A DNA stretch of 64,000 nucleotides from Isurus oxyrinchus (Eukaryota), in the NCBI GenBank assembly GCA_026770705.1, contig JANJGN010000009.1, forward strand, positions 16,430,001 to 16,494,000. The letters run 5' to 3'. Shown piece by piece: positions 3,546 to 40,395 of the stretch. The first letter of the stretch is position 1. Each line of letters begins with the position of its first letter. A program made the translations under genes and the position numbers. The notes under the pieces are model-generated. The model had not been told where the DNA came from. It did not search any database and saw only the letters and a program-made list of their open reading frames with translations.

Positions 3546-3746
3546 AAACAAAAAATGCTGGAAAATCTCAGCAGGTCTGACAGCATCTGTGGAGAGAAAG
3601 ACAGAGTTAATATTTCGAGTCCGTATGACTCTTCTTCAGAGCTCTTTCTCTTTCTCTCCACAGATGCTGTCAGACCTGCTGAGGTTTTCCAGCGTTTTTT
3701 GTTTTTGTTTCAGATTTGCATGCAGCTTCTGCAGTATTTGCTTTTG
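3546..3746. mobile_element. Penelope-derived fold-back mini-element with HHR motif on - strand (3605-3643)
   Basis: Two inverted copies of the end module. The - strand reads CTGAAGA-A-GAGTC-ATACG-GACTC-GAAA (canonical HHR core). No TSD seen. Confidence 0.75.
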
Positions 3747-3824
3747 CCCGTATCCATGGCCCCTCATACCCACTATGCCAACCAATGCTCTCTACCCACA
3801 CGCCCGGGGCCCCCGTGGAGCATA

Positions 3825-4625
3825 AATCGGGAAAATACCATATTGCCTATTTTGGCACGAAAAATAAAAAGGAAGCATCTTATCTCAATGGTGAGAGATC
3901 GCAGAGCTCCAAGATTCAGAGGGATCTGGGTGTCTCATGCATGAATTTCAAAAGGTGGCAAGGTGGTACAGCAAATAATTAGGATAGCTAATAGAATCTT
4001 ATTGTTTATTGTGAGGGGAATTGAATACAAAAGTAGGAAGGTTATGCTCCAGTTATACAGGGCCACGTCTGGAATACTGTGTACCGTATGGGTCTACTTA
4101 TTTAAAGAAGGATGTAAATGCATTGGAAGCAATTAAGAAATTACTAGACTAATACCTGGGAGGGGTGGGTTGTCTTATGAGGAAAGGCTGGACAGACTAG
4201 CATGTATCCACTGGAGTTTAGAAGACTAAGAGCTGAAGTAAGAGATGACTTGATTGAAACATATATACCTGAGTGGTGTTGACAGGGTGGATGTGGAAAG
4301 GGTGTTTCCTCTTATGGAAGAATCTAGAACTCTGGGTCATTGTTTAAAAATAAGGCGAAGCCCATTTAAGACAGAGATGTGGAGAACTTTTCTCTTTCAG
4401 AGGGTCAGGAGTCTTTGGAACTCTCTTCCTCAAAAGGCGGTGGAAGCATTTGATCATTTTTAAGGCAAAGGCAGATGGATTCTTGATAAGGGGGTGAAAG
4501 GTTATTGGGGGCAGGCAGGAATGTGGAGCTGAGGTTACAATCAGATCAGCCATGATCTTATTGAAGGGCTGAGCCGAGTGGCCTACTCCTGCTCCTAATT
4601 CATATGTTTATATGTACGTATATTC
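3825..4625 (+). mobile_element. CR1-type LINE 3' part (RT C-terminus and 3' UTR)
   Basis: SGVDRVDVERVFPLMEESRTLGHCLKIR..FKTEMWR..FQRVRSLWNSLPQKAVEA. Ends in a TATG-like tail. Confidence 0.85.
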
Positions 4626-5439
4626 ATATGTGCCACTAATAGCCCCTATGCCAACTTAGTGCCAACTCATGCCAACCCATGTGCTCTTACCCCTCTATGC
4701 CAAATCACCTAGTATCATTTGACAGCTATGACAGTTCTTTGACAGCTGGACAGTTCTTTGAAGCTGAATAGGTCCAACAAATGTGTGCATAAACAGTGGA
4801 TGTTCACTTTTAACAATCACAAAGGTTGCCTTACCTATCCAAAGCTGTATGGGAACCATATCCAAAGGGGTACCCTATCTCTCCAAAGGGATGCCCTGGT
4901 CATCCAAATGAACCTGCCAAGTTCAGACCTCCACTTACCTCATCTAATATACACACTCTGGATTTAACACTCCTGGCCTACCAAAATCCCACTTAAGTGA
5001 AGGCAGCTGGTGATTTAAATGGCCAGCTGCCTCCACAAACTGAACATACGTGCACCCCGCCTGACTCCACTCCTGCCCCAACAAAAATGGAATGTGCCAT
5101 TTTCGGAGGTGGGCTTAGAATTTTCGGCCATTTCTGGGATTTTTGCCATAAGAGAGAGCCTCTCCGTCGTGGTGAAAATCTGGGCCTTTGTATTCAACAC
5201 CTCTATTTATGAAGCCCAAGACGTCAGAAGCATTGCTAACTACTTTCTCAGTGAGTTCTACACCTTCAAAGATCTATGCACATGCACCCCTAGGTTGCTT
5301 TGCTCCTGCACACTCTTTAGAACTGTGCCAGGATGTCTGTATTGCCTCTATCACTTCTGCCAAAATGCCTCACTTTTTAAAGGATAGGATTAAAAAATAA
5401 TATAAATGTAAATTCTATAGTCTAACCTTTAGACAGAGT

Positions 5440-6025
5440 CGACAGTGACACTCATCTCTTGAATCTGAAAGTCATGGGTTCAAGACCCACTACAGCTCTT
5501 GAGCACATTATTTGGCTGACATTTCGGTTGAGTGCTGAGGGGCTACTGCATTGTTACAGATGTTCAATCTTTGATAAAGTGTTACACTAAGACCTAGTCT
5601 ACCTATTCTATTGGCTATGACAGATCCCGTGGCACTCTTCAAGGAGAGGAAGGGGCATCCTAACTAACATTACCTCTAATTTTTCTGTTGTGCATGTTAT
5701 TCATTTAAGTGCATGGTATCTTAAAACTTCTGCGCGGCCAAACACGCTCAGTATCTTAAAGGGAACGACTTGAGCATGGGCTGCATGGTAACTTGTGAGT
5801 TGGTGCAATTGCACGCCGCTTAGAGGGAACATTGATTCTGACTAACATTTGTCCCTGAACCAACTTCACCAAAATAGATCAACTGATCATTACTATTTGT
5901 GAGACCTTATATGCACAATTTGTCAATTGCATTTACATACACTACAACAGTGGTTGCATTTCAAAAGTAATTTGTCTGTTATGAAGTGTCTTGGCGTGTC
6001 ATGAAAATTGCTACATAAAAAAAAT
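5440..6025 (+). mobile_element. tRNA-derived Deu-domain SINE (SacSINE1/AmnSINE1-like), interrupted by a small hAT-like MITE
   Basis: B-box-like GGGTTCAAGACCC, body homologous to 39780-40395 and 44615-44910, L2-like 3' tail. Family name is from recalled consensus, not a search. Confidence 0.65.
5665..5834. mobile_element. hAT-like MITE
   Basis: Right TIR TTAGAGGGAACATTG, degenerate left TIR TAACATTACCTCTAA, imperfect 8-bp TSD ATCCTAAC/ATTCTGAC. Confidence 0.55.
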
Positions 6026-6650
6026 TCTCCAATGCCAGTGGCTTCATGGTCATTTCTTTTCGATTCTGTTCTATTTCTGCCTTAAAGATACATTACATGA
6101 AAAAAACATTCTGACATTAGAATACAGAAGCCTAAAGAGTTTGTCTGAAAGTCCCCTTTGCAGAGATGCGACTCCACTTATTTCCAATAAAAGTGCAAAC
6201 TTCTTTCTAAGCAAAACCTCCTTATGTGTTAGTGACCTCCAATGAGATCTTTGAGAAGGCTTCTGTAGTTAAGGTGTAACATTTAAGGTTATCACAAGAA
6301 GACATTTTTCACCAACAATTCAGATGCACATTGCTTAAAAGCCTCAATGATTCAGAGCTTCAAACTTACTAATGGAAGGGGTGCCGTTCTGAACAGCAGG
6401 TCTGTTCTGGTGTCTACAGTTGAAAGCATTAAATGGATTGTTTGTAAGCAATATAATTCACATGAAAAGCACTGCGGAGATAATGTATTGTGACAAAAAG
6501 CTGCAGACAAAGGGAGTCATTTCGATAAAGCCATATTCCAAGATGTGTTGAATACTTACAGCAATTGCACAGCTACACAGTGAGATGGCGAGAGAACCTC
6601 TGTGCACTAACCCTCTTCGCCCCAGCAAAACAGTAAACACTATTAAACTG

Positions 6651-6765
6651 GAAACACTCAGCAGATCTGGCAGCATTGGCGGAGAAGAAAAGAGTTGACG
6701 TTTCGCGTCCTCATGACCCTTCCACAGAAGTTTTGGATTTCCAGCATCCGCAGTTTTTTGTTTTT
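6651..6765. mobile_element. 115-bp Penelope-derived mini-element with internal inversion and HHR motif on - strand (6693-6730)
   Basis: Perfect 15-bp TSD AACACTATTAAACTG (6636-6650, 6766-6780). First part is the reverse complement of ~10710-10790; second part is the terminal tail in + orientation. Confidence 0.9.
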
Positions 6766-7029
6766 AACACTATTAAACTGTTTCCAGCTTCATCACACAT
6801 TACACCCAGAGGGGAATCGTTCTCTCAGGGTTTTGCAAAATAAAATGTAAATAAGCAATTGTTTTGTCTTAAAACACTGACTCACCAATATGTATACTCA
6901 GCATGGAGGTATTCAAAACCTGTGCTTAACATATTTGTGTAACATGGTGTTTTAACAGAGATTTTATTCCATCAAAGATAAATGGGTTTATACCTGTGAT
7001 AAAATAGGAGGAATACCATTATAAGGTAT

Positions 7030-7845: not shown

Positions 7846-8238
7846 GTCTTTGTCTGCTAGACTTAGCAAAGGGCTTGTAGCTTTTAAATTCAATGAAGTA
7901 AAAACAATGCATTTTTCTGAAATTCCACTTTGCACTATCTTTTGCAGAAGTGTTATGGTATTTACCTGAAAGGTATTAACACTTCCATTCATGTAAATTA
8001 ATTTTAGAACTATGTGAATAACATTTTTACTCTCATGATGGACCTTCAAGGCAATGGGCACTAAATTTTATAAGCACGCAAGTCCTGACTTATATGGTCC
8101 AGATCTTATATAGACATTTGAGAAAGGCAGCACGGGTATCATCAGCCAAGTCCTCCGCAGGTAGCCCTTCTCCCCAAGGAGCCAACCCTGCAGCCTCTTG
8201 TGGATTCAGGAAGACATCAGGGATCTGAATGAATTTCA

Positions 8239-10347
8239 ATGAACCTCAATGAATTTCGGGCTCGGCATGATACTGAACTCTTCTTCCGCCGTCTTCGTCT
8301 CCGGGCTCACTTCTTTGGGCAGGAGTCCTCTCCCAGTTCAACGGATCCTTTTACCCGCCTCCAATATTCTCCCTCCACCTGGACCCCTCCCTCTGGATTC
8401 TTACCTTCTCTCGATCTTTTCATTGAGAACTGTCGGCGCGACATTAGTCGTCTCAATTTCTCTGCTCCTCTCACCCATTCTAACCTGTCTCTCTCTGAAC
8501 TTACTGCACTCCATTCTCTCAGGTCCAACCCTGACATTGTCATCAAACCCGCTGACAAGGGTGGTGCTGTTGTTGTCTGGCGCACTGATTTCTACCTCGC
8601 GGAGGCTGAGCGTCAACTCGCAGACACTTCCTCCTACCTCTCCCTGGAACATGACCCCACCACTGAACATCAAGCCATTGTTTCCAGGACTGTCACTGAC
8701 CTCATCTCCTCTGGGGATCTCCCTCCCACAGCTTCCAACCTGATAGTCGCCCAACCTCGGGCGGCCAGCTTCTATCTCCTACCCAAAATCCACAAACAGA
8801 ACTGCCCCGGTAGACCGATCGTCTCAGCTTGCTCCTGCCCCACAGAACTCATTTCTCGTTATCTTGACTCCCTTCTCTCTCCCCTTGTCCAGTTCCTTCC
8901 CACCTATATCCATGATTCCTCTGACACCTTACGTCACATCAACAATTTCCAGTTCCCTGGCCCCAACCGCTTCCTCTTCACCATGGACGTCCAATCCCTC
9001 TACACCTCCATCCCCCACCAGGATGGTCTGAGGGCCCTTAGCTTCTTCCTCGAACAGAGGCCCGAACAATCCCCATCCACCACTACTCTCCTCCGTCTGG
9101 CTGAACTTGTTCTCACGCTGAACAATTTCTCCTTCAACTCCTCTCACTTCCTCCAAATAAAAGGTGTGGCTATGGGTACCCGCATGGGCCCCAGCTATGC
9201 CTGTCTCTTTATGGGGTATGTAGAACATTCCTTGTTGCAGTCCTACTCCGGCCCCCTTCCACAACTCTTTCTCCGGTACATCGATAATTACTTCGGTGCC
9301 GCTTCATGCTCTCGTCGGGACTTGGAAAAATTTATTAATTTTGCTTCCAATCTTCACCCCTCCATTATTTTCACGTGGTCCATCTCTGACACTTCCCTTC
9401 CCTTCCTTGACCTCTCTGTCTCAATCTCTGGTGATAGACTGTCCACCAATATCCATTACAAACCCACCGACTCCCACAGCTATCTCGACTACAGCTCCTC
9501 ACACCCCGCTTCCTGTAAGGACTCCATCCCATTCTCTCAGTTCCTTCGGCTCCATCGCATCTGTTCCGATGATGCTACCTTCAAAAACAGTTCCTCTGAC
9601 ATGTCCTCCTTCTTCCTTAACCGAGGTTTTCCACCCACGGTCGTTGACAGGGCCCTCAACCGTGTCCGGCCCATCTCCCGCGCATCCGCCCTCATGCCTT
9701 CTCCTCCCTCCCAGAAACATGATAGGGTCCCCCTTGTCCTCACTTATCACCCCACCAGCCTCCGCATTCAAAGGATCATCCTCCGCCATTTCTGCCAACT
9801 CCAGCATGATGCCACCACCAAACACATCTTCCCTTCACCCCCCTTATCGGCATTCCGTAGGGATCGCTCCCTCTGGGACGCCCTGGTCCACTCCTCCATC
9901 ACCCCCTACTCCTCAACCCCCTCCTATGGCACCACCCCATGCCCATGCAAAAGATGCAACACCTGCCCCTTCACTTCCTCTCTCCTCACCGTCCAAGGAC
10001 CCAAACATTCCTTTCAAGTGAAGCAGCATTTCACTTGCATTTCCCCCAACTTAGTCTACTGCATTCGTTGCTCCCAATGTGGTCTCCTCTACATTGGAGA
10101 GACCAAACATAAACTGGGCAACCGCTTTGCAGAACACCTGCGGTCTGTCCGCAAGAATGACCCAAACCTCCCTGTCGCTTGCCATTTTAACACTCCACCC
10201 TGCTCTCTTGCCCACATGTCTGTCCTTGGCTTGCTGCATTGTTCCAGTGAAGCCCAACGCAAACTGGAGGAACAACACCTCATCTTCCGACTAGGCACTT
10301 TACAGCCTTCTGGACTGAATATTGAATTCAACAACTTTAGGTCGTGA
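8239..10347 (+). CDS. Penelope-like reverse transcriptase with Zn-finger linker and GIY-YIG endonuclease (702 aa, N-truncated, YIDD changed to YIDN)
   Basis: Motifs IVIKPADKGGAVVV, FYLLPKIHK..PGRPIVS, TMDVQSLYTSIP, QIKGVAMGTRMGPSYA, RYIDN, LPFLDL, YKPTDSHSYL..SSHP, CPCKRCNTC, NLVYCIRC..CGLLYIGET....RFAEH, P.GLN. No stops or frameshifts. Confidence 0.92.
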   Translation: MNLNEFRARHDTELFFRRLRLRAHFFGQESSPSSTDPFTRLQYSPSTWTPPSGFLPSLDLFIENCRRDISRLNFSAPLTHSNLSLSELTALHSLRSNPDIVIKPADKGGAVVVWRTDFYLAEAERQLADTSSYLSLEHDPTTEHQAIVSRTVTDLISSGDLPPTASNLIVAQPRAASFYLLPKIHKQNCPGRPIVSACSCPTELISRYLDSLLSPLVQFLPTYIHDSSDTLRHINNFQFPGPNRFLFTMDVQSLYTSIPHQDGLRALSFFLEQRPEQSPSTTTLLRLAELVLTLNNFSFNSSHFLQIKGVAMGTRMGPSYACLFMGYVEHSLLQSYSGPLPQLFLRYIDNYFGAASCSRRDLEKFINFASNLHPSIIFTWSISDTSLPFLDLSVSISGDRLSTNIHYKPTDSHSYLDYSSSHPASCKDSIPFSQFLRLHRICSDDATFKNSSSDMSSFFLNRGFPPTVVDRALNRVRPISRASALMPSPPSQKHDRVPLVLTYHPTSLRIQRIILRHFCQLQHDATTKHIFPSPPLSAFRRDRSLWDALVHSSITPYSSTPSYGTTPCPCKRCNTCPFTSSLLTVQGPKHSFQVKQHFTCISPNLVYCIRCSQCGLLYIGETKHKLGNRFAEHLRSVRKNDPNLPVACHFNTPPCSLAHMSVLGLLHCSSEAQRKLEEQHLIFRLGTLQPSGLNIEFNNFRS

Positions 10348-10708
10348 GCTCCCTCCCCCATCCCCACCCCCTTTCTGTTTCCCCGTTCCTTTTTTTTCCA
10401 ATACATTATAAAGATTTTCCTTTTCCCACCTATTTCCATTATATAAAAAAAAACACCCCCTCTAGAGCTATACCTTGAGTACCCTACCATCCATTCTTAA
10501 TTAGCACATTCGTTTAGATAATATCACCAACTTTAACTTTAACACCTATGTGTTCTATTGTACCATTGTTGTTGACATCTTTTGATGATCTGCTTCTATC
10601 ACTGCTTGATTGTCCATACAACCACCTCTCTCTCTCTCTATCTCTCTGCCCCCCACACACACACCTTAAACCAGCTTATATTTCAACTCTTTCTTGGACT
10701 CGAACTCA

Positions 10709-10747
10709 AGTTCTGTCGAAGGGTCATGAGGACTCGAAACGTCAACT
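10709..10747 (+). ncRNA. Minimal type-I hammerhead ribozyme motif (A6U core variant)
   Basis: AGTT-CTGTCGA-A-GGGTC-ATGAG-GACTC-GAAAC-GTC-AACT: stem I AGTT/AACT, stem II GGGTC/GACTC, GAAA, predicted cleavage after GTC (10743). Minimal HHRs are known from Penelope-like element termini. Confidence 0.7.
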
Positions 10748-12534
10748 CTTTTCTTCTCCGCCGATGCTGCCAGACCTGCCGAGTTTTTCCAGGTAATTCT
10801 GTTTTTGTCAGGGATCTGAAATCTACAGAGAATGTAGGGATCATAGACACCCCATGGGAACCATGCGCAGACCCGCAGGATGCATTTCTGGTGGTCGCAC
10901 ACAGCTGAACATTCAGCGAGTGGAAGCTCTTGCGGTTGACATAGTTGGCTGTTTGATCTGAGCACCACGTGTATGCACTTTGGAAAACCTGGGATCTGGG
11001 CAAATCCCAGCACTCTTGCTTCCTGGCTTTCCTGATTCTGGGTGGATTGCACAAAGTTGTGTGTCTTAGCGAAGGTAGGGTCCGTGACCTCATGGATGTA
11101 CTTGTGCATAGAGGCTTGTGATATCTCACAGAGGTCACCTGTGGAGCCACTGACATAAAAATTGAGTGCCATGGTCACTTTCATGGCCACAGGCAGTGGG
11201 TGCCCTCTATGTCCCCGTGGCACCAAACCCTGAATAATTTGGAAAATGTGACTGACCGGTTCACTGAACAATCAGAGTGTTCGGTGACATTGATTCTCAT
11301 TCATCTACAGGAATAACAAATGCTGCCTATAGACCTTGGGTCTAGCTAGGCGCCGACCAGCAACAATTTGCTGTGGCCATTCAGTGGTGCGTACAGGAGC
11401 CTCAGCCACCCCTTCTTCCTGATGGTACTGCTCCTCCCTCTGCCCAGTCAGGTGCCTCCGTCACTCTCTTCTCCTTCATCTCTGCTCTCTGCAAACCATG
11501 CAGCATATCTCAGAACTATCTCAGCTGAAGCTAAAATGAAGCTCATGCTGAAATTCGTACCTGGGTGGAGCAAACCATCGGAATGTTGAAAATGAGGTTC
11601 CGGTGCCTGGACTGGTCTGGTGGAGCCCTGCAGTACAGTGCATAGAGGGTGTCACGCATCATCGTGGCCTGCTGTGCCCCTCACAACCTGATGCTGCAGT
11701 GGGGAGAGGAGCTGGCTGAGGAGGAGATGGAGGAGCTGCACGTCTCCTCCGATGAGGATAACGTCAACAGGGATAAGGGTGAGGAAGTCCTCGAAGGCAA
11801 GGATGACGGCGATGAGGCTATCGCTTTGGCCAGGTGAGGCAGGCTCGCTCAGGAGGCCCTCATAGCTGCTAGATTTGTGGAGGATGATGATGACATGAAG
11901 TGAGGAAACTCCATAGATCCTCACGTTGCATCTGTAAACATTTGACGCCTGTCTGGCTGATGGCAGTGCACATACCCTCAGTGATAAGACTTCTGTCATG
12001 GAGATGCAGCAGATGCCCATAGTCCCTACATTCCAGGAGGATGATGATGACAAGTAGCAAGGACACTCCACAGATCCTCACAAAGCTTCCATGAATGTCT
12101 GACTCCTATCTGACTGTTGGCAACTCACTTGTGCTCTGTGAACAGGGTCATACCATGGTGATGCAGCAGGGAAACTTTAACACCTCCTGATCCTATGGCA
12201 TCCTTAGTGAACTGAACTACACTGTCACCAGATACAGATGCTAATGAGATGGGGGGCCAGCCACACCTCAAAGGTGCAGAGAGAGAATGATGGAACTCTG
12301 TGCTGCCGGCCCAGGACTTTCTGGTAGCAATGACAAGCCCTATCAAGGTGCAGGCACGACTGATGTGACCAGTGGCAGTGAAGGCGCATGATCAGTGTGC
12401 TAGGAAGGTTACACTAAGCACAGGGAGGAGGCCCTGGACTGAGATGCCTGCCTTATCTTGTGCAGGGACCAAGGTTTCACATATAAGTGACACGAACACT
12501 TCTCATCATAACAAGGAGCCATAGGCAAGGAGAC

Positions 12535-15500
12535 ATACATACAAACATATGTATTAGGGGCAGGAGTAGGCCACTCAGCCCCTTGAACCTGCTCCGCCAT
12601 TTAATAAGATCATGGTTGATCAGATTTTAACCTCAACCCCACATTCCTGCTTACCCCAATGACCTTTCACCCCCTTGTTAGTCACCGCTTTTTAGAGGAA
12701 GAGAATTCCAAAGACTCACTACCCTCTGAGGGAAAAATTTATCCTCATCTCTGTCTTAAATAAGCAGCCCCTGATTTATAAACGGTGACCCCAAGTTCTA
12801 GCTTCTCCCACAAGAGGAAATATCCTCCCCACATCAACCCTGTCAAGGCCCCTCAGGATCTCAAAGCTTTCAATCAAATCACCTCTTACTCTTCTAAATT
12901 CCAGAGGATACAAGCCTAACCTGTCTAACCTTCCCTCAAAAGGCAGCCCACCGATTCCTGGTATTAGTCTAGTAAACCTTCTCTGAACTGTTTCTAATGC
13001 ATTTACATCCTTCTTTAAATAAAGAAACTAGCACTGCACACAATACTCCAGATGTGGTCTCATCAGTGCCCTGTGCAAATGAAGTATAACCTCCCTACTT
13101 TTGTAATCAAGTCACTTCACAATAAATGATAAATGTTTCTATTAGTTTTCCTAATTACTTGCTGTACCTGCATACTAATATTTTGTGATTCATGCACTGG
13201 GACACCCAGATCTCTCTGCATCTCAGAGCTCTATATTTCTCACCATTTAGATAATAAGCTTCTTTTTAAATCTCCCTGATGAAATGGACAATTTCACATT
13301 TGCCCACACTATACCCCATTTGCCAGGTCTTTTCTCACGCACTTAACCTATCTCTGTTACTTTGTAGTCTCTTTACATCCTCTTCACAACTTACTTTCCT
13401 ACCTGTCTTTGTGTCATCAGTAAATTTAGCAACCCTTCCTTCGATCCCTTCCTCCACGCCATTTATATAAATTGTAAAAAGTTGAGACCCCAACATTGAT
13501 TTCTGTGGCACACCACTCACCACATCTTGCCAACTAGAAAAAGACCCATTTATGCCAACTCTTTGCTTCCTGTTAGCTAGCCAATCTTCTATCCATGCCA
13601 ATATTCCACCTCTGAGACCATGAGCTTTTATTTTCCACAATAACCTTTGATGTGACACTTTGTCAAATGCCTTCTGGAAATCTAAGGACTGTACATCCAC
13701 CAATTCCCCTTTATCCACATCATATGTGACTCCTTAAAAGAACTCAAAATCAATTGGTTAAACATGATTTCCCTTTCACAAAACCATGTTGATTCTGCCC
13801 AGTTGCCTGGAATTTTTCTAAGTGCCTTGCCATAACATCTTTAATAATAGCTTCCAACATTTTCCTTAAGACAGATGTTAAGCTAACTGGTCTGTAGTTT
13901 CTTTCTTTCTGTCTCCCTCCCTTGTTGAATAAAGGAGTTACATTTGCTATTTTCCAATCTAGGAACCTTCCCCAAATCTAGGGAATTTTGGAAAATTAAA
14001 ACCAATGTATCAACTATCTCAATAGCCACTTCTTTCAATTCCTTAGGGTAAAGTCCATCTGGACCTGGGGACTTCTCAGCCCACAGCCCCAACAATTTGG
14101 CCTATACTACTTTCCTGGTGATTGTAATTTTCCAGAGTTCCTCCCTCCCTTCCATTTCCTGATTTATAGCTATTTTCAGGATGTTACTCATGTCTTCTGC
14201 AGTGAAGACTGAAGCAAAATATCTGTTTAATCCATCCGCCTTCTCGCTATTTTCCAGCATCAATTCCCCTGACATGCTTTCTATAGGATCAATGTTCACT
14301 TTGTTAACTCTTCTCTTATTTAAATATCTATAGAAACTCTTAGTATCCATCTTTATGTTACTAGCCAGCTTTCTCCCATAGTCTTAATTTTCCCTCCTTT
14401 TTAATCTTTTTGTCATTCTTTGCTGTTCTTTATATTCTTTCCAATCTTCTGACCTGCCACCCATCTTTGTGTAATTATGTGTTTTTTCTTTAAGTTTGAT
14501 ACTGTCTTTAACTTTTTTTAGTTAAGCACGGATGGTGGGCCCTCCCTTTGGAATGTTTCTTTCTCATTGGAACGTATATATTCTGTGTATCCTGAAATAC
14601 CCCTTTAAACGCCTGCCACTGAACCTCTATTGACCTATCCCTTAACCTCATTTGCCAGTTCACTTTAGCTAGCTCCGCTTTCATGCCCTCATAATTGCCC
14701 TTACTTAAGTTCAAAATACGAATCTTGGCCACACCTGTTTCTCCCTCAAAATGAATCTAAAATTCTATCATGCTATGATTGCTGTGACCTAGGGGGTGCC
14801 TTCACTATTAGGTTATCAATTACTCCCATCTCGTTGCTCAATACCTGTTCTCTGATCGGCACCAGAACATGCTGTTCGAGGAAACTATCCCGAAAACATT
14901 CTATGAACTGCTCGCCTACACTACTTTTGCCCATCTGATTTTTCCAGTCTATACGTAGATTAAAACCCTCCATGATTATAGCTGCTACTTTCTGACAAGC
15001 TCTCATTATCTCTTCTTTTACACTCTGTCCTACTACGTAATTACGAGCCTGTGCACCAGTCTCACAAGTGATTTCTTGCCTTTATCATTCCTCATCTCAA
15101 ACCAAACCGCTTCCAAATCCTGGTTTCCTGAGCTTAGGCCATCCCTCTCCAATGTGCTAATAGCATCATTAATTAACAGATGCATCCTCCACCTTTTCCT
15201 AACTTCCTGTCCTTCCTAAATTTAACATGCCCTTCAATATTCAGCTTTTAATCTATGGGCTGAATCTTCCGGTTGGCGTGCAGGGACAGGCCTGAGATGC
15301 TGACACACAAAGTGACATGCAATGACTTCAGGCGTGCATCCTGCGTCATCACGTGCCATCGCGATATTTCGTTCGGCGGGCGTGCGCCAGAATCGGCTGC
15401 ACACCTGCCGAAATGTCAACGGCCTATTAAGGCCATTAAGAAAGTAATTAAACCAGCTAAGAACGCTGCCCGTCCAACCTTAAGGTTGTCAGGCAGTCGA

Positions 15501-17450
15501 AAAGCCCAAGCAGCCTTTACATTTTTCAGAAAACCTCATCCACGGGCGGGATGAGGTTTCCTGAAGCTTTTATTAAACAAATAAAAAATATTTCCCACCT
15601 CAATACAACATGTCCCAACTCGTGTGACACTGTCAGATAGGGGACATGTTTAAATAAATTTTTACCTCATTTATTAACCTGTTTTATTATCCATTCAATC
15701 TCCCCGAGGCATCTCCGTGCCTCAGCGAGATTGAAGCGCTCTTTCCCGTGCATGGCCCTGACTCTGCCTCCTCCCCTCGCCCGCACAGGTAACGCTGAGC
15801 GCTACTGGCCGTGCGTTAATTGGCCCGCTGTGTAAAATGGCGGCGCGGAGCCAATCACAGGCGACGATCGGCTCCCTACCAGCCCCTGCCCATTCCCGCC
15901 CAGCCACAGGAAAATTCCAGGCCTATGTTATATTGTAGCCATGTCACTATAATGGCTTTCAGATCGTACTTATTATTTCTATTTGTGCTATCAGTTCATC
16001 TGTTTTTTGCTGAATGTGACGTGCGTTTAGGTACACAGCCTTAAGTTTTGTCCTTTTATTATTTTTGTAATGTCTAGCCTTATCTGCTGATTTTCTCTTA
16101 GATTTGTATACTTTGTCCCTTCCTGTCCCTGTCTGTTTATCATTTCCCATATTAATACCTCTCTCTCTTGCCTTGTGTCCACTCTTTGGTTTACCACATC
16201 TTCCAAAATTTGGTCCCTTGCCCCCACTATTCAGATTAATACCCTCTCTACCTCCTTAGCTATGTGCCTCATGAGGTCACCAGCCCCAGCACAGTTCGGG
16301 TGTAGACCATCCCAATGGTACAGGTCCCACTTTCCCCAGTACTGGTGCCAGTGCTCCACAAACCAGAACCCACTTCTCCCACACCAGTCTTTGAGTCACA
16401 TGTTCATCTCTCTAGCTTTTTTTCACCTACGCCAATTTGAGCGTCTGCTTTTCAGTTTAGTGTATAGCTCCTCAAACTACCTATACCTCTTTCCTCATTC
16501 TACCTATGCCATTGGTACCTACATGAACCATGACCACTGGATCCTTTCCCTTCTACTGCAGGTTCCTCTCCAGCCATGAGCAGATGTCCCAAACCCTGGC
16601 ACCGGGCAGGCAACACATCCACTTGGATTCTTGCTCTTTGCTACAGAGAATAGCATCAATCCTCCTCACTATACTGTCCCCAACTACAATTATATTCCTT
16701 TTTGCTCCCCCACTTGAATGGCTTCCTGTACCATGGTGCCATGGTCATTTTGCTCATCCACTTTGCAGCCCCATTCTCATCCAAACAAGCTGAGAGAACC
16801 TCAAACCAGTTGGACAATTGCAGAGGCTCATACGCTTGCACTCGTGCCACCTGGGTCCCCTTACCTGTCTCACTTGGAGCCTCAGGCTCTTGTCCCTGAG
16901 CACTGAGCAAATCCAAAGACCCTATCCTAAGTGGTGTGATTGCCCCCTGGTATAAAGCATCTGGGTAACTGTTCCCCCACCACCCCCCCCCCCCCCCCCC
17001 CCACCTCCCCACCCTAATATACCGCAGTGTCTGCAGCTCAGCCTCCAGCTCAATGACTCTGAGCCGAAGTTCCTCGAGCCGCAAACACTTACTGCAGACG
17101 TGTTTGCCCTGGATCACAATGTTATCCAGGAGCTCCCACATGCTGTAGCCTTGACACATCACCTATCCTGCCATCCTTAATGCGTTTTAAATAATTACTT
17201 AATTCTATTAATCACTTATTTATGTTGCTTTCTTATATATTTTATTAACTTTAACCACCAGTTTATGTACTATTTTAAATCTTGGGGATAGAATTAAACT
17301 TCTCACTTACCAGATACTCACCAAACAGCTAGCTCCTTTCCCTGTAACAGAGCAAGGTGAAAAAGATAGAAGAAGGAAATGAGCACTTCCTTCACTGAAA
17401 TCCCCCTCTTACCAAATTCCACGTCTCCACTCAATTAGCTCAGCTACACT
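12535..17450 (-). mobile_element. Near-full-length decayed CR1-type LINE (ORF1 zinc-finger/coiled-coil and esterase; ORF2 APE and RT)
   Basis: ORF1 MCQ..SMWEL...HVCSKCLRLEELRLRVIELEAELQTLR and VVMVHVGTN. APE start LKAVYLNARHI. RT KSPGPDG, LDFQKAFDKVSHQRL, SGVPQKSMLG, KFTDDTK. (TATG)n-like tail near 12535-12555. Many frameshifts. Confidence 0.9.
15257..15923. mobile_element. Harbinger-family MITE inserted in the CR1 endonuclease region
   Basis: TIRs GGGCTGAATCTTCC / GGAAAATTCCAGGCC, TSD TAT. Confidence 0.88.
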
Positions 17451-20297: not shown

Positions 20298-20299
20298 AA

Positions 20300-23621: not shown

Positions 23622-24631
23622 GAGGCTGAATTATACAAGGCACCGGATTCTCAGTCCCTTCCACCAGCTAAAAAGTTATGTTAAAAACAAAAAAACTGCG
23701 GATGCTAGAAATCCAAAACAAAAACAGAATTACCTGGAAAAACTCAGCAGGTCTGGCAGCATCGGCGGAGAAGAAAAGAGTTGACGTTTCGAGTCCTCAT
23801 GACCCTTCGACAGAACTTGAGTGGAAGTTCTGTCAAAGTTCTGTCGAGGGGTCATGAGGACTCGAAACGTCAACTCTTTTCTTCTCCGCCGATGCTGCCA
23901 GACCTGCTGAGTTTTTCCATGGAATTCTGTTTTTGTTTTAAAAAGTTATGTTGCTGGGTGTGATCCTGATGAGAGAGCCAATTGGTCCTTTATAGACTCA
24001 AGTCGGGATTTCTGTCCCTCAGGAAGAGGCTGTCTTACCTCAGAGAGCTGCTGGCCAATCAGAGGCCTGCAGCTCTCCAGCACTTGGGCGTGCGGCGCTG
24101 GTATGTTAGGGATCTTCTTGGGTGCCAAGTTGGCAGGCCCTGTGGAGGGACGGGTGAGGGGTGTCGGGAGTCTGGGTCCATGGCAATGGGACTAGGACAA
24201 CCTGCGGGGAGGTAAAACCTTGGCTGGAGCCTTCCAATGAGCCTGAGGGTCCATTAGGGAGGGAAATCCCCCTCGCCAGCCAGCAGTCCCGGCGGTGGGT
24301 GGGTGGAGGGGTGGGGGGGTGGGGTGGGCAGTGGTGGCGGTGGGGGGTTGCGGAGGGTGGTGGGGTTGCCTGTTGGGCTGGCTGCTTCCAGTGGGCCTCT
24401 CCTGGAGCCAGTTAGATCCCAACAGGTGGTGGTATTAGGTCCTTATGTAGGAATTAATTGCCGACTTAAGGGCCTCAATTGGTCCACTGACAGGCGAGCT
24501 GCCTCATATCATCCAGTATAATTGCTATGGGGACAGGGGCAGTCAGGAAGGCAGGAAGCAGGCTGCCCTTTTGAATTATTGAGCCCACCCTGTCTGCAAA
24601 CCTCCCTACAGGAGAGTGTAAAATCCAGTCC
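23622..24631. mobile_element. Degenerate Harbinger-type non-autonomous element hosting an HHR mini-element
   Basis: TIR-like GGCTGAATTAT and TAAAATCCAGTCC ends. Internal motifs shared with the MITE family. Confidence 0.5.
23683..23938. mobile_element. 256-bp palindromic Penelope-derived mini-element with two back-to-back HHR motifs (23779-23817 on -, 23837-23875 on +)
   Basis: Perfect 14-bp TSD TAAAAAGTTATGTT (23669-23682, 23939-23952). Arms nearly identical to each other and to 10709-10807. Confidence 0.92.
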
Positions 24632-25988: not shown

Positions 25989-25989
25989 A

Positions 25990-26230
25990 AATGAAGGAAT
26001 TCAGGAGGAACTTTTTCACACAGAGGGTAGTAGAAATCTAGAATTCTCTTCCCTCAAAAGCTATAGATGCTGAATCAGTTGGAGCTTAGAGAACTCTGGT
26101 TGATAGCTTTTTGCTAGGTAAGGGATATGGAGCAAAGCCAGGTAAGTGAAGTTGAAGTACAAATGATCTAATTGAATAACAGAGCAGGCACGAGGGGAGA
26201 ATAGCCAGTTCTGGTTCCCATGTTCCTAAA
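25990..26230 (+). mobile_element. CR1-type 3' fragment
   Basis: FRRNFFTQRVVEI*NSLP-type sequence followed by the CR1 3' UTR. Confidence 0.7.
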
Positions 26231-27049
26231 TGTATAATGTGCAATATTTCCTTGTATCTTCACTCTAAAAGTGCTGTGAACAGATGCCTATGTCCCTGCC
26301 ATCCAATAATAGGTGGGGGGATTCCTATTATTAGTCGATCACAAGACCCCAATTGCCTCATCAAAAGGCCATGGAATTTCAGGGCTAATGAATTCTGCCC
26401 TCAAGTTTGTAGAAGAGGGAAGTTGTGTTGAACGATGACCAAAATTAATATTAGCACACATTACAGCAGATTCCCCCTCAAAAGTATTTTATTGGTTGTA
26501 AAGTGCTTTGGGACGTCATGAAATTATGAAAGATGCCGTATGAATGTAAGTCCTTTTTATAAATTAGCACTTTAATAAAAACTGTAGTGATTTAACAGAA
26601 ATAATGGATACTTCATATTATTAATTTTAGTATATAAAGCACTTAAGAGAGAAATATTGCCCTAAGTGCCTACAAGTGGATGTTAAAGGTGAAACGTTTC
26701 AGCTGTTTAAAGTTGTTTTCTTTTCATCCAGCCAAGCAAGAACAGTTTGAATGCAAAACTTTGGAAAACTTCACAGACTAATTTGCTGTTCTGAAGCTTT
26801 AATCATTTCTTCACTCACTGTGAAACAGGCCCGAGGTGTGTTGTCATGCCACTTAATCATTGTTTCAAGATTGTGGATAGCTAGAAAAGTATATATAATT
26901 TATTGGCTCCTCTGCACCCAGTGAGAGATGAAAGTTAAGAATGAGATGTCAAACTCAGTCATGAGTTGTTCCATTGCACAAAATCACAGCTTCTGTTCCA
27001 TAGCTCCATGGCGCTTCTGTGCTAAAGCATTCATGTGAAAAAGACATCT

Positions 27050-27309
27050 TTTGGCTATCTCCACCTATCACTGGCCCTCTATCCAGCTCTACCTGTCCCA
27101 CTAACCGCTACCCCCCCGCCCCCACCACCCCCTTAAACCAGCTTATATTTCATCTCTTTTCTATTTTTTCTTAGTTCTGTTGAAGAATCATATGGACCTC
27201 GAATTGTTAACTGTGTTCCTCTCCGCAGATGCTGTCAGACCTGCTGAGTTTTTCCAGGCATTTTTGTTTTTGTTTTGGATTTCCAGCATCTGCAGTTTTT
27301 TGTTTTTAT
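27050..27309 (+). mobile_element. Penelope 3'-end fragment with decayed HHR motif (27173-27212)
   Basis: CCTTAAACCAGCTTATATTTC is shared with 10664-10685 and is followed by the full end module. Confidence 0.8.
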
Positions 27310-28591: not shown

Positions 28592-29298
28592 AGCCAGAAT
28601 TTTACCTACAGCATACAGATGCATGCCCAACATGCCCGAACATAATATGACATGCGGTGAAGTCGGGCGTGCGTTCTGACATCATCGTGCACTCGCGCGA
28701 TATTTCACTTGGCGGGTGCGAGCCAGAGTCAGTTGCACGCCTGCCGGTAATTGAAAAGCCTATTAAGGCCATTAACTGGGTGATTAACTGGAAATTTAAG
28801 CTGCCCATCCAACCTAACGGTCAGTGGGCAGGCGAAAAGGCCAAGTGGCCTTTATATTTTTTAGGAAACCTCATCCACAAGCGGGATGAGCTTTCCTAGA
28901 ACTCAAGCAAATTAAATAAAAACTTTCCTCTGACATTAAAAACATGCCCCATCTCATGTGACACAGTCACATGAGGGGACACGTTTCGTTAAATTTTAAT
29001 CACCTTTATTCGTTTTTTTAAAAAGCACTTCAATTTCCTGAGGCAGCTCCAAGCCTCGAGTTTGAAACGTTCTTTTACGCGCAAGTGCAAACTGTGTGCA
29101 AGGCCCAGTCCCCAGGGCTGCCGCTCGCGATCCACACAGGGCGGGCCTTAATTGCGCCCCCACCCCCACCCCCGACCATGTGAAATCATGGCACAGAGCC
29201 GATCACGGGTGGTGATCAGCTTCCCAACCCCCCCCACCAGGCCCCCCCTCCTCCCGCCCACTCCCGCCGAGCCCGCCCGACAAGGGAAAAATTCTGGC
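28592..29298. mobile_element. Harbinger-family MITE
   Basis: TIRs GCCAGAATTTT / AAAATTCTGGC. Body homologous to 15257-15923. Confidence 0.85.
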
Positions 29299-29493
29299 CA
29301 GTGAAACAGTGGGAATTTGCATTCAAAAGGGAAAATATGTACAAAGGACCAAAGGCTGTGTAAGGGTGGGCATGTTAAGAACTAACAAGTGTGAAAAACT
29401 TTCAGCCCTTATGCCTCAAGCTGCTGTTTTCAAAGAACTGAAGTTAAAAAGACTCACTTTGATTTCGACTGGTTCAGGGTATCATATTTCTTT

Positions 29494-29754
29494 AAGGTAA
29501 AAGCAAAAAACTGCAGATGCTGGAAATCCAAAACAAAAACAAAAACACCTGGAAAAACTCGACAGGTCTGGCAGCATCTGCAGAGAGGAACACAGTTAAA
29601 GTTCCGAGTCCATATGACTCTTCATCAGAACTAAGGAAAAACAGGCTATTCTGTTCTGTTGAAGGGTCATTCGGATTTGAAACGTTGACTGTGCCCCTCT
29701 CCACAGATGCTGCCAGACCTGCTGAGTTTTTCCAGGTATTTTTGTTTTTGTTTT
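29494..29754. mobile_element. Palindromic Penelope-derived mini-element with two HHR motifs (29594-29632 on -, 29653-29689 on +)
   Basis: TSD GTATCATATTT(C/T)TTT, 14/15 match (29479-29493, 29755-29769), and inverted end modules. Confidence 0.88.
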
Positions 29755-30146
29755 GTATCATATTTTTTTGCTTGAGTCTTTCAAAAATATGTGGCTTACT
29801 GTTGTCTTAACAAAAGTGTAACTAGGAGTCAAGAGTAAGTAGGGGATTTTGATGTTATCATGTTGGTAATTTGTAGATCTATGTATGTGTTTAAAATCAT
29901 TTCTCTTATTAATGCATGTTTAATTTAGTTTTGTAAAAACCTATAAGACTTTGTGTTCTATTACTACTGAATTCAAGGCACACACCTCAAATCTTATACA
30001 AATTACAAAACAATTGTTTCAAGTTTCCCTCTGGGATTTGAGCGACTCAGCACTTACCAATCAAAACCATAACAGTCCACCCACAGTGCTGTTAGGAAGG
30101 GAGTTGCATGATTTTGACCCAGTGCCAGTGAAGGAATGGAGATATA

Positions 30147-30803
30147 GGCCTGAATCTTCTGGTCGGCGTGTTGGGGGTGGGCCCTGCATGCTGACGTGTA
30201 AACTGACACGCGGTGATGTCGGGGGTGCGCCCCCAACGTCACCGGCCATCATTCCGATCTTTAGTCCGGCAGGCACGCACCGGAGTCGGCTGCGCACCCA
30301 CCAAACTGTCAAAGGCCTGTTAAGGCCACTTAACAACCAATTGAAACAATCAACAGGGCTGCCCGTCCAAGCTTAAGGTTGGCGGTCAGACGAAGATCCC
30401 AGGCGGCCTTTGTATTTATCGTGAAATGTCATCCATGGGCGGGATAAAGTTTCATAAAGGCTTTGTACGTCAAATAAAATTTTTAATTAAAATTCATTGA
30501 CATGTCCCAGCTCATGGCTGAATAATCTTCTCTACTTTTTTTTTTTGAAGCTTTCATAATGAAAATGATTTCCCTGAGGCAGCTCCATGTCTCAGGGAGA
30601 TCTCTGTGCTCTATCACCGCGCAGGCCCCGACTCTCCCTCCTCCCTCCGCCCGCACAGGGAGTGCTGAGCGCTTGCAGGTGCGCATCACACTGGGCGGGA
30701 CTTAACTGGCCCGCCCCATGTAAAATGGCGGCATGTAGCCAGTTGCCGGCAGCGATTGGCTGCACTCCCGCCCAGCCCACTTGATGGGGAGAAAATTCTC
30801 CCA
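30147..30803. mobile_element. Harbinger-family MITE
   Basis: TIRs GGCCTGAATCTTCT / AGAAAATTCTCCC. Body homologous to 15257-15923. Confidence 0.85.
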
Positions 30804-31839
30804 AAGTTCCAAGTCAGGATGGTGTGTGGCTTGAACGGAAGGTTGAAGGTGGTGATGTTCCCATGCGTCTGTCATGTGACCCCCCCCCTTGGCAAAGGCT
30901 TCCTAAAGTCTGTACACCACATCCACCACATTCACCATGACTGGTACTGCCTCCAAAATATTCTGTGACTCAAGTCTGTCAAACACAATTCATCCCTTTG
31001 GAAATTGGAGCCGGCCACTTCTAACAATCTTTCCTTTATTTCGATACATGAAGGAGTGAATTAAAAGCAATTTTACACGGTCCATCCACTTTTACGGTTG
31101 GCGGACAGGTCAATCAGCCTGGCGCGCTTCACATTTTTGCCTACAGCCTCGATCCGGGAGGAGGGGGGGGGGATGAAATGTCCGGGGGTGAACTATAATA
31201 AAAAAAAGATGCCTGGTGACTGACGTTTTTTGAGTTTCGCTGTCAGGCGCTTGAATGCGCTGCATAGGCACAGTTTGCTGCATTTCTTTCCTTCTCATTT
31301 AATTTGCACAGGCCACTTGCTTGCGCCCGACACGTAAGCGATAGATTCAGACCAAGGCAATTTCATCCTTAATTGAAGACTAAAATTTTCCTGACTCGAC
31401 TACTGACATTAATTTACCTGACCTGTAAACACACAAATGAGTGCTAAAATCACTTTGAGAAACTGAGTGCTGCATTGGACACTCTCCAGTCCGTTGATGT
31501 ATATATTCACGTTCAATCGGGACTTGAAATATCGGCCCAGGTCTTCTGTTCCTTGGGGGTCATACCTCAGGGGTACGCCAGCAGATGCAATGGGGAACAC
31601 CCCTGCCCCACCGCTGAAGTCCCTGCACAAGCACTGCACAGGAATTGCCCAGGAAATTTCACCTTCTGTTGGGCAATGACACTGCGCTTGGAGCCCTCTG
31701 AAACTCTGATTTAAATCAGGGACTTTGGACGGTTCTGACTGTGTTAGCGGAATAGTTACCCAGGAGAAGTTAGAAGGATCAAAACCATTTCTAACTCCTG
31801 GATAACTATGGCACTGACAAGCTTGACTCCCCACTGGAC

Positions 31840-32185
31840 GTCCCCACCGACGCCTCCATCACCCAACAGCCCCCTCAACTACCCCCCAACCCCAACTGCA
31901 CCCACCACTAACTACCCCTGATCCCCCATGAACCCCGACTACCCCCCACCCAGTGTAATCAGGTGGCCGGGGAGTGGGGGGTAGATAGGGGGCTGGGGGC
32001 ATAATCTGGGAGTTGGGGGTTGGGGTATTGGTTGGGGGGAGGGGGGGTGTGGGTGGGGGGTAGTTGGGGTTCATAGGGGGTCGGGGGAAGTTACTGGTGG
32101 GTGTAGGTGGAGTTGGGGGGTAGTCAAGGGAGTTGTCAGATGATGGAGGGGTCAGTGGTGTAGTTGGGGGGGGGGGGGGGTGTCC
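31840..32185. repeat. C-rich then G-rich low-complexity tracts, partly inverted
   Basis: (CCCC-AACTACCCC)-like units at 31860-31950 are mirrored by (GGGGTAGTT-GGGG)-like units at 31975-32180. Confidence 0.6.
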
Positions 32186-34758: not shown

Positions 34759-34797
34759 TGTGTGTGTGTGTGTGTGTGTGTGCGCGTGTGTGTGTGT
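34759..34797. repeat. (TG)n microsatellite
   Basis: Seen directly. Confidence 0.9.
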
Positions 34798-35520: not shown

Positions 35521-35528
35521 TGTGTGTC

Positions 35529-35563
<35 letters not shown>
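35521..35563. repeat. (TG)n microsatellite
   Basis: Seen directly. Confidence 0.9.
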
Positions 35564-35564
<1 letters not shown>

Positions 35565-37559: not shown

Positions 37560-39522
37560 CGCCCTGCCCAGTGCAAAAAGGGTCAGCCATGACTCAGCTC
37601 CCCACATCATGACTATCCCCCATTGTAAAAACATCACGCACAGGCATCCTCCATTTATCAAAATGAAATTTGGGACCATTGACATCAGGACCTTCATGGA
37701 CAACCCAACAGTGACAGACCTGAGCATCGCACCACCATCATAGCTTGGGAACTCAAGTGCCTTGACATCAATATTGCCGCCCTAAGTGAGACACGACACA
37801 CAGGAAAAGGCTAACTGAAGGAACAAGGTAGTGGGTACACTTTTTTCTGCAAAGACCTTCTAGAAGGAGAATGTTTCCACCAGTGGCATTCTCAATCAAA
37901 ACTGAGCTTGCCTGGCACCTCAGCGACTCCCCCTGTGGGATACGTGAGTGCCTCATGACTACCCAGCTCACCCTAATGATGACTCAGCATTCCACTGTCA
38001 TCAGCTCATACTCTCTTACACTTGAAGCAACAGATGAGACCAACCTCGAGCAATCCCAAGCCTGAATCCCAGCAGGTGACAAATTGGTCCTCCTCAGAGA
38101 TTTCAACGCCAGAATCAAGAAGGATACAGATCTCTGGAAGGGTGAAATAGGCATGAAAGGGGTAGGGAAAGCAAACTTCAATGGAGTCCTCCACTTGACA
38201 GAATGTCTAGAAAATGTCTTTGTCATAACCAACACTCTGTTCCACCAGCAAGACAAGCACAAGACCTCCTGGGAACACCCATGGTCTAAATACTGGCACC
38301 TGTTAGGGTACAGCATTGTTCGAGCAAGGGATCACAGAGATGTTCATATCACCCACGCCATGGCAGGCACCGATGACAGCTGCACCATCACCACCTTATC
38401 TGATCTACCATCTCTATCAGCCTGTCCACCAAACATCAGAGGCAACAGGGACAATGCCACAAGAAAATTAACAACAAATACTTTAAAGATCCCACCAAGG
38501 CAACCCTTCACAGTCAGTGCCTCACTGCCAACCTCTCAATCTCCCACCACCAGGAGCAACAGTGTGCCCATGGTGCTTGGTTGACCCAAAAGTCCACAAT
38601 AACAGGCACCTGTGGAGATGTTCATCGCCTCTCTACCAGGAAACATCGTGACTTGTTTGGCAAAAGTAACCAAGAAATACAGGACTAAATTGAGTGAAAT
38701 TTCATTGACTGGAAAATTCCCAGCACCTCAAGAGAAAAGCAGCAGCCCTATAAGTATCTGAAGGCAATGGTACAGCATAAAACCCATGACATAAAGAACC
38801 AATAGTGAGTAGAAGGAGCTCAGGAGATCCAACAACTCATGGATTACCAATGACATGCATTGTTTCTTCAGTGAAGATAACTTGCAGAACAGATGGGAAA
38901 CTGATGAACCAACACCTTCAACCCAAAATCAAAATCACTCCAACTATCGAGCTCCAGAATGAAGAAACTGAGCTCCTGGTCATTATTGATTCCTTCTCTG
39001 AAGCACTTGGGGAAATGGGCCTTAGCGCTAAACATTCAGAAAACTAAGGCCCTCTGCCAACAAGCTCCCACAGCATAACATCTTCCCCCTTCGATTAAAA
39101 TGAGGATCGTGGAAAATGTGGATCTTCCTCTTGATGAAGACAGAAATAGACAACAAAATTCATCGTTGACACCGATATACAAGCTCAGCCTCTAAAGAGG
39201 GCAGTGGAAAAGTTTTAGCAATGTCCTCAAGGCATCCCTGAAGAGGGAGACCCTGGCTTGTGACCAACCGAAATGGAGAAGATTACTCAGGAAGGCACCG
39301 AACACATCGAGAGACTTCATCGGGAACTCAGGGAGGTAAGACATCAGAGAGTGTGCACAAACCTCCAAACAACTCATCCAACCGACCCTTCAGGCACGAC
39401 CTGTCCTGCATATGACAGAGTCTACAGATCATGCATTGGGCTTATCAGCCATCTCCAAACCCATCAAACCGGAGCGGAAGCAAGTCATCCTCGATCCTGA
39501 CGGACTGCTGAAGATAAGAAGA
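37560..39522 (+). mobile_element. RTE-clade LINE, internally deleted
   Basis: APE motifs DINIAALSET, GYTFF, LLRDFNAR, GVGKANFNG, ITNTLF, KTSWEHPWSKYWHLL. C-terminal CP..DR..RS.IGLISHLQTH. AAG-rich tail. Confidence 0.85.
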
Positions 39523-39779
39523 CTCACCTTGCCCTCAGTACTTCAGGATTCTACTTCCTCTCTGACATCATTCTCTTCAGTAAAAATGGAAATGAAACAC
39601 TAACAGCTCTACTATTTTTTGATGACAATTTAAAATTCAGCAGCTCTCTCTGCTCAGCTCTCCCACTTGACTTTTAGCAATCACCTTTTTACTGATATCA
39701 TTATAAAATACTTTACTGTTTCTTTTGATATCCACTGAAGTTGTTTCCCAATACACCTTCGACTTTGACTGTTGAATCA

Positions 39780-40395
39780 CTTAATTCCTGAGGCAGACAG
39801 TCATGGCTTCAATCCTCAGCCTAGACATTACAGCACTGTAATTCGATCTGATGGAGTGCTATGTTCGTCAGTTGTGCTGCCTTTCAGATGAGACCTTAAA
39901 CCAAGGGCTCAATCTGCCCTGTTAGATGAACCTAAAGGTTTCCATGGCACCAACTGAAGAAGAGCCAATTAGTTGTCCAGTTCATCAGTTATCTCTGAAC
40001 CAGCAGCATTAAAAATAGATAAAGGCAGGAAAGCAAAATACTGCAGATGCTGGAAATCTGAAATGAAAACAGAACGTGCTGGATAATCTCAGCAGGTCTG
40101 GCAGCCTATCGAGAGAGAAACAGAGTTTACATTTCGAGTCCATATGACTCAGAAGGAATGTTAACTCTGCTTGTCTCTCCACAGATGCTGCCAGACCTGC
40201 TTGAGTTTTTCCAGTATTTTCTATTCTTATTAAAAATAGATAATCTGGTCATTTAACTCATTGCGTTTTTGTCGAGCCTTGCTGTGTGCTCGCTGGCTCC
40301 TCTGGGATAACAACCACACTACAAAAGCATTTCCAAGGCTGTAAAGAGCTTCAGAATATTCTGAGGACATGAAAGGTTTAGTATAAATACCCAAC
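39780..40395 (+). mobile_element. Deu-domain SINE interrupted by a Penelope mini-element
   Basis: Homologous to 5440-6025. Confidence 0.6.
40023..40228. mobile_element. Fold-back Penelope-derived mini-element, HHR core deleted at the inversion point
   Basis: 15-bp TSD ATTAAAAATAGATAA (40008-40022, 40229-40243). Only stem II (GAGTC-ATATG-GACTC) and GAAA remain on -. Confidence 0.85.

Follow-up and report, generated by a model that had tools for sequence, protein, structure and literature searches.

Short fold-back insertions of the hammerhead-like end of a Penelope-like element in the genome of Isurus oxyrinchus

The window analysed here, 64,000 nucleotides of Isurus oxyrinchus contig JANJGN010000009.1 (assembly GCA_026770705.1, positions 16,430,001 to 16,494,000), contains a long copy of a Penelope-like element (PLE) and, at six further loci, short copies of its 3'-terminal module, most of which are arranged as fold-backs (Table 1). 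The long copy has a stop-to-stop open reading frame (ORF) of 704 amino acids (8233-10347), in which a reverse transcriptase (RT; RVT_1, E=1.9e-6) is combined with a C-terminal GIY-YIG endonuclease (E=5.5e-4), both marginally below the Pfam cut-offs; this is the composition expected of an endonuclease-bearing (EN+) PLE. Between the two domains lies the sequence CPCKRCNTC (residues 570-578), which corresponds to the CX2-5CxxC linker described for Neptune and Nematis (Craig 2021, PMC8557442), and by this linker the long copy can be classed as a Neptune/Nematis-type PLE. The nearest named relatives of the long-copy protein are shark and ray proteins of 64-72% identity. Since full-length relatives mostly comprise ~800-950 amino acids, the long copy appears to lack roughly 185 N-terminal residues. 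Its target-site duplication (TSD) has a GC content of 46%, i.e. it is not AT-rich.

Table 1. The long PLE copy and the terminal-module copies in the window (strand and tail of each arm in brackets; UTR, untranslated region)
Feature	Locus	Coordinates	Strand	Description	TSD (left / right; matches)
5'-truncated PLE, Neptune-type linker	long copy	8230..10807	+	one orientation, tail-less	8217..8229 / 10808-10820; 13/13
Conserved block upstream of module	long copy	10665..10686	+	22 nt identical between long copy and 27050	
Minimal type-I hammerhead-like motif	long copy	10709..10747	+	from descriptor scan, alignment and stem pairing	
Fold-back	3546	3542..3745		left arm 3542-3643 (-), right arm 3644-3745 (+)	
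Non-overlapping inversion	6651	6651..6765		module 6648-6730 (-), tail only 6731-6765 (+)	6636-6650 / 6766-6780; 15/15
Young fold-back	23683	23683..23938		left arm 23683-23822 (-, tail), right arm 23836-23938 (+, no tail)	23669-23682 / 23939-23952; 14/14
Plain 5'-truncated copy, older subfamily	27050	27043..27307	+	3' UTR and tail, not inverted	
Older fold-back	29494	29494..29755		left arm 29494-29644 (-, tail), right arm 29653-29755 (+, no tail)	29480-29493 / 29756-29769; 13/14, or 14/15 with a shared G
Older fold-back	40023	40023..40228		left arm (-, tail), right arm (+, no tail)	40008-40022 / 40229-40243; 15/15

A profile of the terminal module returned 12 pieces at E<=1.1e-5, confined to seven loci, the next match in the 64-kb window having E=0.09. 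These are exactly the places at which the sequence-only reading of this DNA had noticed the module, and its description of five units of 115-260 bp made of oppositely oriented pieces also holds: five of the seven loci consist of two module pieces placed head-to-head with their 3' ends outward (115-262 bp), while the copy at 27050 is plain and runs in one direction. As had been claimed, four of the five pairs (6651, 23683, 29494 and 40023) are flanked by TSDs of 14-15 bp; among random position pairs, 0/1500 attained 13 TSD matches. TSDs were also looked for at the 3546 and 27050 loci and none was found. Copies of the module terminate at either of two 3' ends, ~31-37 nt apart; the extra stretch of the longer form is the PLE 'tail', which exactly one arm carries in 5/5 fold-backs. 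Both features of PLE inverted insertions, the inverted terminal copy and the tail on one end, are present in all five. The fold-backs are real insertions of the ribozyme-like PLE end, and they are the published inverted PLE insertion architecture in its shortest form. Their attribution to the PLE end, inserted by the machinery of the element, is borne out by TSDs of similar length to that of the long copy and by the identity of the 23683 arms to the long copy (97-99%).

The junctions are individual, all five differing from one another. In long-copy coordinates, four loci have the inner end of their longer arm at ~10697-10711; for 40023 it is placed at ~10721 or, assuming a 6-nt deletion, at ~10711. 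The earlier statement that the inversion point is at or just upstream of the hammerhead in every case thus applies to the longer arm, but not to the partner arms, whose starts range from 10708 through 10710, ~10736 and ~10748 to ~10807, the last belonging to a piece that is tail only. At 3546 the left arm holds the whole motif and no tail, the right arm starts just past stem I and has the tail, and the junction folds such that the motif forms a loop closed by stem I. The two pieces of 6651 do not overlap, so that this locus is not palindromic and drops out of what had been described as palindromes resembling miniature inverted-repeat transposable elements (MITEs). In 23683 the arms are identical at 101/104 positions, the left arm matches the long copy at 104/105, and the centre holds a 13-nt filler, 10 nt of which are a restart of the right arm. 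The arms of 29494 mismatch at 16/99 columns around an 8-nt filler; both fillers repeat neighbouring sequence. In 40023 the left arm stops at or just beyond stem II and the right arm begins at the GAAA box.

The motif at the start of the module consists of stem I (10709-12/10744-47, 4 bp), stem II (10721-25/10731-35, 5 bp) and C3 at 10713, with a predicted cut at 10743/10744. PLE hammerheads of the minimal type I are characterized by a bulge after A9, a G10.1-C11.1 pair and palindromic positions 15.2-16.2 (Cervera and De la Pena 2014, PMC4209133), and the shark motif shares the bulge after position 9, the pair and the palindrome, which is CG. Across nine aligned arms, 90% of the stem cells are paired, as compared to 22-52% when the alignment is slid; the nine near-kin sequences show 0 two-sided (compensatory) changes. 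Position 6 of the core is U in 6/9 arms and A in 2/9, and the complete consensus core CUGANGA...GAAA...UH occurs in 1/9, the left arm of 3546. The hammerhead named in the sequence-only reading therefore stands as a minimal type-I-like motif by descriptor and pairing, but its core is mostly non-canonical and only 2/5 fold-backs (23683 and 29494) carry two motifs. Searching Rfam yielded 17 matches with E<=1, none of them to a hammerhead family; the microRNA (miRNA) matches all scored below the gathering threshold and were discarded as artefacts of hairpins. Folded as a monomer, the motif did not adopt the hammerhead fold, as anticipated for a minimal motif, and this counts neither for nor against it. 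In the young subfamily, U at 10716 and equivalent positions replaces the conserved A6 in 4/4 arms, with the stems kept. The A6C change has been reported to make a hammerhead slow, and position-6 changes to lower activity (PMC3088659); in the young subfamily the fold may count more than the cutting.

The long arms retain the motif and run ~35 nt beyond the predicted cut. Arms copied from a cleaved template would be expected to start at 10743/10744 without the core, which is not the pattern of the long arms; since these keep the motif and do not start at the cut site, the template RNA was presumably uncut. The proposal of RNAs bounded by ribozyme cleavage is not supported, given the same ~35 nt. 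In addition, 23683 folds into a hairpin of ~100 bp (-199 kcal/mol), and in a read-through RNA from either direction the antisense arm of a fold-back is made first; such a hairpin would be predicted to hide the motif in the transcript.

Within the window, 5/7 inner ends fall within 15 nt (p about 2e-5 to 6e-3), and 4/7 when 40023 is left out (p 8e-4 to 0.06), both ranges depending on the truncation curve assumed. For a wider view, Logan contigs of four runs (X1, host DNA and possibly the source sample; X11, from a related species; and two more from the host whose RNA label is a guess) were aligned to 10105-10824 at 90% likeness. The RNA-labelled runs are contigs too, one of them probably of DNA, and the comparison covers near-kin of the young subfamily, with X1 saturated and depth not equal to copy number. 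Stem I begins at 10709, and loose ends directly before this base are seen in 114 contigs of X1, 111 of X11 and 10 of X21; at the true 3' end, 10808, the counts are 182, 180 and 20. The 10709 ends resemble those at 10808 (agreement 0.41) in their low agreement (0.39 in X1, 0.37 in X11), long loose parts (median 42 and 186) and mixed flanks. In X11, each of the other four places listed has 9-17 contigs. Apart from 10709 and 10808, the places listed for the runs are high-agreement variants or low-complexity runs, and the predicted cut at 10744 is absent among the loose ends listed. No shared molecule ends were listed, contigs being unable to show them. Of the joints listed, 5/15 have an end at 10706-10711, and the only one between opposite strands is 10709/10774, with depths of 130 (X1) and 25; since single long X1 contigs shown (n=8) have depths of 13.5-44.5, it represents a few copies. 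Summed depth across 10705, which is not copy number, climbs 2.3-3.7x in X1 and 1.6-2.5x in X11. The 10709 boundary recurs widely in two species, with no amplified inverted junction among the joints listed, and the expectation that breakpoints are non-random with respect to the hammerhead is supported at the inner boundary by these loose ends. This sharp 5' edge is the sole unusual feature of the fold-backs and is partly confounded by subfamily divergence.

Several breaks in the same contigs concern other parts of the PLE end. The deepest joint among those listed connects 10808 to 10591 (depth 1771 + 389, host run), with further joints from 10808 to 10594, 10538 and 10532. If head-to-tail, the first would correspond to tandem units of ~220 bp, each containing a single hammerhead motif, in a family of some tens of copies that is retrozyme-like or a partial tandem. 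A second cluster of breaks at ~10591-10605 includes joints of 10593-10605 to 10706-10743 and of 10600 to 10662-10665; reading the joints of 10593-10605 to 10706-10711 as splice junctions was not accepted, their ends not being GT-AG. In X24 the consensus of a loose end behind 10808 tracks the tail and then deviates from the last T-rich stretch of the DNA tail, possibly as a splice donor or a run into the element's 5' region, a weak signal (23 contigs, agreement 0.68).

In twin priming of L1 elements, the RNA is primed a second time by the other target strand, which gives rise to an inverted piece, and 6651 looks like such a 5' inversion. Unlike L1 inversions, the fold-backs are otherwise palindromic with overlapping arms, because the two priming events mostly begin at the 3' module. 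MITEs are short and have inverted ends and a TSD; the arms of the fold-backs, in contrast, are retroelement sequence of unequal length, with TSDs of 14-15 bp and no uniform family. A MITE or other family copied as a unit was rejected, since 5/5 junctions differ and, for near-kin of the young subfamily, the best inverted joint among those listed is a few copies deep. Inverted 5'-truncated PLE copies with a one-sided tail of 30-40 bp, TSDs and junction palindromes have been described (Arkhipova 2013, PMC3846280; Craig 2021, PMC8557442; see also Schostak 2008, PMC2377424), and the fold-backs share with these the head-to-head polarity, the TSD and the junction palindromes. Unlike the published examples, they have no ORF between the arms, measure 115-262 bp, and their longer arm stops at stem I. 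A boundary at stem I, stem-guided junctions and shark PLE palindromes were not found in the literature searched, which did not cover supplements and does not establish their absence from print. Dual PLE hammerheads on opposite strands ~100-700 bp apart are known, most motifs being solo and read as truncated PLEs (PMC4209133); the shark motifs have the same minimal type-I layout, but U6 in the young subfamily, and where there are two they lie within ~20-25 nt. Animal non-LTR (long terminal repeat) retrozymes are non-coding, derive from the PLE pseudo-LTR (pLTR), carry a type-I hammerhead and have been found in a chondrichthyan (PMC7229834; bioRxiv 10.64898/2026.07.22.740005). According to these accounts their units stand in head-to-tail tandem, with ribozymes of the same sense, whereas the fold-backs are head-to-head and single (5/5). 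Membership of the fold-backs in this group was rejected on that polarity and because the long arms end ~35 nt upstream of the predicted cut.

We favour, with a probability of roughly 0.62, the reading that the fold-backs are one-off products in which both nicked target strands primed reverse transcription on PLE RNA and the resulting cDNAs were joined; the second priming event postulated earlier is supported. The element's endonuclease would cut the two target strands 13-15 nt apart, the distance recorded by the TSDs, and each target 3' end would prime at one of two start sites on the PLE RNA, leaving the tail on one arm. In vitro, an anole PLE protein nicks and extends both target strands with a preference for AT-rich targets, the tail is set by two internal RT start sites, RNA downstream of them is required, and hammerhead cleavage is dispensable in that cleavage mutants insert normally (Frangieh 2024, PMC11167929). 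By analogy with this element, the one-sided tail would be caused by the two RT start sites. The start sites, the use of both strands, the AT-rich targets and the uncut hammerhead template are as proposed here, although the anole element is a Poseidon and belongs to a different clade from the shark element. The uncut template deduced for the long arms agrees with the cleavage mutants. Copying would thus pass through the uncut hammerhead and often halt at its first base, the boundary seen at the longer arms and, with the confounding mentioned, in the contigs.

The stop near 10709 would likely be the RNA 5' end or a splice junction in an upstream pLTR copy. PLE transcripts begin in the upstream pLTR (PMC6765202, PMC2377424), so priming there would reach the RNA 5' end after 100-140 nt. 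An initiator (Inr)-like word is found at +1 in the two older copies, and a weak TATA-like word 29-31 nt upstream of stem I in two subfamilies. The spot is also an AG following a pyrimidine tract, and in Drosophila virilis an intron ends at helix I (PMC4209133). A start site and a splice acceptor are both candidates for the edge. The conserved 22-nt block upstream of the module, which includes the TATA-like word and 3' of which the spacer diverges between the long copy and 27050, is a candidate promoter or branch-point region. The two same-sense cDNAs would then be joined by a putative repair step using short complementarity or a short templated filler. Such joining needs self-complementary sequence, which hammerhead stem I could supply in 3546 and stem II in 40023, while 23683 and 29494 have fillers. 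Short fillers repeating adjacent element sequence are seen both at the 5' junction of the long copy (8230-8245) and at the centre of 23683 (23823-23835), which suggests templated end joining or priming more than once. The insertions are probably inactive from the outset: because they end at the RT start sites, the stubs would be without the binding sequence that lies downstream and could not be copied further.

A cDNA that has passed through the hammerhead might instead fold back via the stems or a small hairpin and copy itself, endonuclease resolution leaving the one-sided tail. Self-priming from palindromes at inverted junctions has been proposed (Arkhipova 2013, PMC3846280) and the tail has been ascribed to such resolution (Craig 2021, PMC8557442); the stem I and stem II hairpins fall at the junctions of 3546 and 40023, respectively, and 23683 has a small hairpin besides its 10-nt restart. 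The arms of 6651, however, do not overlap, and in 3546 the short arm is tailed and the long arm tail-less; in both loci the tailed arm contains sequence missing from the other, so that it cannot have arisen by self-copying of that arm. The mismatched arms of 29494, and those of 40023, which also differ widely, set against TSDs that mismatch at 1/30, speak in the same direction (p 0.01-0.18, biased in that TSDs were picked by matching). Snap-back copying is a rather unlikely account of the set. It is very improbable that the fold-backs are ordinary 5' truncations, with the 10709 edge an alignment artefact of subfamily divergence and a steep length distribution. The upstream spacers do differ between subfamilies exactly at 10709, and the clustering has p=0.06 without 40023 and with a short mean length; on the other hand, the loose flanks at 10709 in the second species are long and mixed, and the other arm of the fold-backs starts within 0-13 nt, which makes the boundary independent of the reference.

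The PLE could also have a non-autonomous partner, either the RNA of a fold-back or a dedicated short RNA, non-coding and ~135 nt long, that extends from stem I to the tail. The edge at 10709 is sharp in two species, the depth step at the module is bigger in the two RNA-labelled runs (3.9-16x, contig depth being unable to rank parts of the element), and PLE-derived non-autonomous retrozymes exist (bioRxiv 10.64898/2026.07.22.740005, PMC7229834). We nevertheless regard this as improbable, since the fold-back ends mismatch the cut site, the core has U6 in 6/9 arms, the loci have no junction in common, the -199 kcal/mol hairpin would conceal the motif, and the copies end at RT start sites and so are without the RNA further downstream on which the anole enzyme depends. 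For like reasons the claim of non-autonomous units copied whole is not upheld: the junctions are all different, the best inverted joint listed is shallow and the motif would be buried in the hairpin. Also improbable is a distinct RNA of ~135 nt that begins with the hammerhead's first base and extends to the tail, with its own start site and copied from both cut strands. If true, it would be a partner of the PLE resembling a short interspersed element (SINE), in which the ribozyme fold serves as boundary and joining device instead of cutter, leaving palindromes ~1 per 13 kb, as in this window.

Some observations weigh against priming from both strands as set out above. Snap-back self-priming fits 23683 equally well, and in 29494 the left arm shows 88% likeness to 27050 against 82% to the partner arm, over 82 sites, which are too few to tell one template from two. 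The in vitro model is a Poseidon and not a Neptune-type element. The 10709 edge is read from contigs and not from RNA ends; there is no Inr consensus at 10709 in the long copy, and Inr-like words occur at 10.7/kb. Loose-end counts by themselves are unspecific, as a C-run at 10649 has 122 in X1; X11 has a further loose end at 10698, and the loose-end consensus finishes in the identical few letters in both species. The subfamilies diverge in the 13-20 nt directly upstream of 10709, so some of the signal reflects variation instead of truncation. Long copies are abundant, in that the module is just 2.2-2.8x as deep as the ORF.

The idea of a new class of mini-retroelement does not stand. Mislabelling of the fold-backs as DNA transposons is plausible: the palindromes score as miRNA-like hairpins in Rfam and could be taken for MITEs. 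If priming from both strands holds, the abundant stubs are a genomic record of the PLE transposition cycle in vivo; the one-sided tail would then match the two start sites and the two-strand priming seen in vitro, and the inner edge would map the RNA 5' end or splice junction. Young arm pairs could reveal whether one or two RNA molecules were used.

Scans by pattern returned 0 loci in viral and 0 in metagenome contigs; a single match in prokaryote genomes lay in bacterial coding-like DNA and was dropped because it resembles a chance match. A protein scan of metagenomes found 10 distant loci of 27-35% identity. The long copy sits at the edge of another repeat (10806-12454), which contains internal tandem units of ~157 nt and recurs in both orientations around 53-55 kb (53249-54864). 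The window also holds three copies of a GC-rich repeat family (15357-15587, 28696-28922 and 30250-30480) and a 124-nt inverted pair of 80% at 31829-32173. Inverted arms of 169 nt at 60333-60501 and 61089-61257, 97% complementary, 587 nt apart and unrelated to the module, look like a young non-autonomous DNA transposon.

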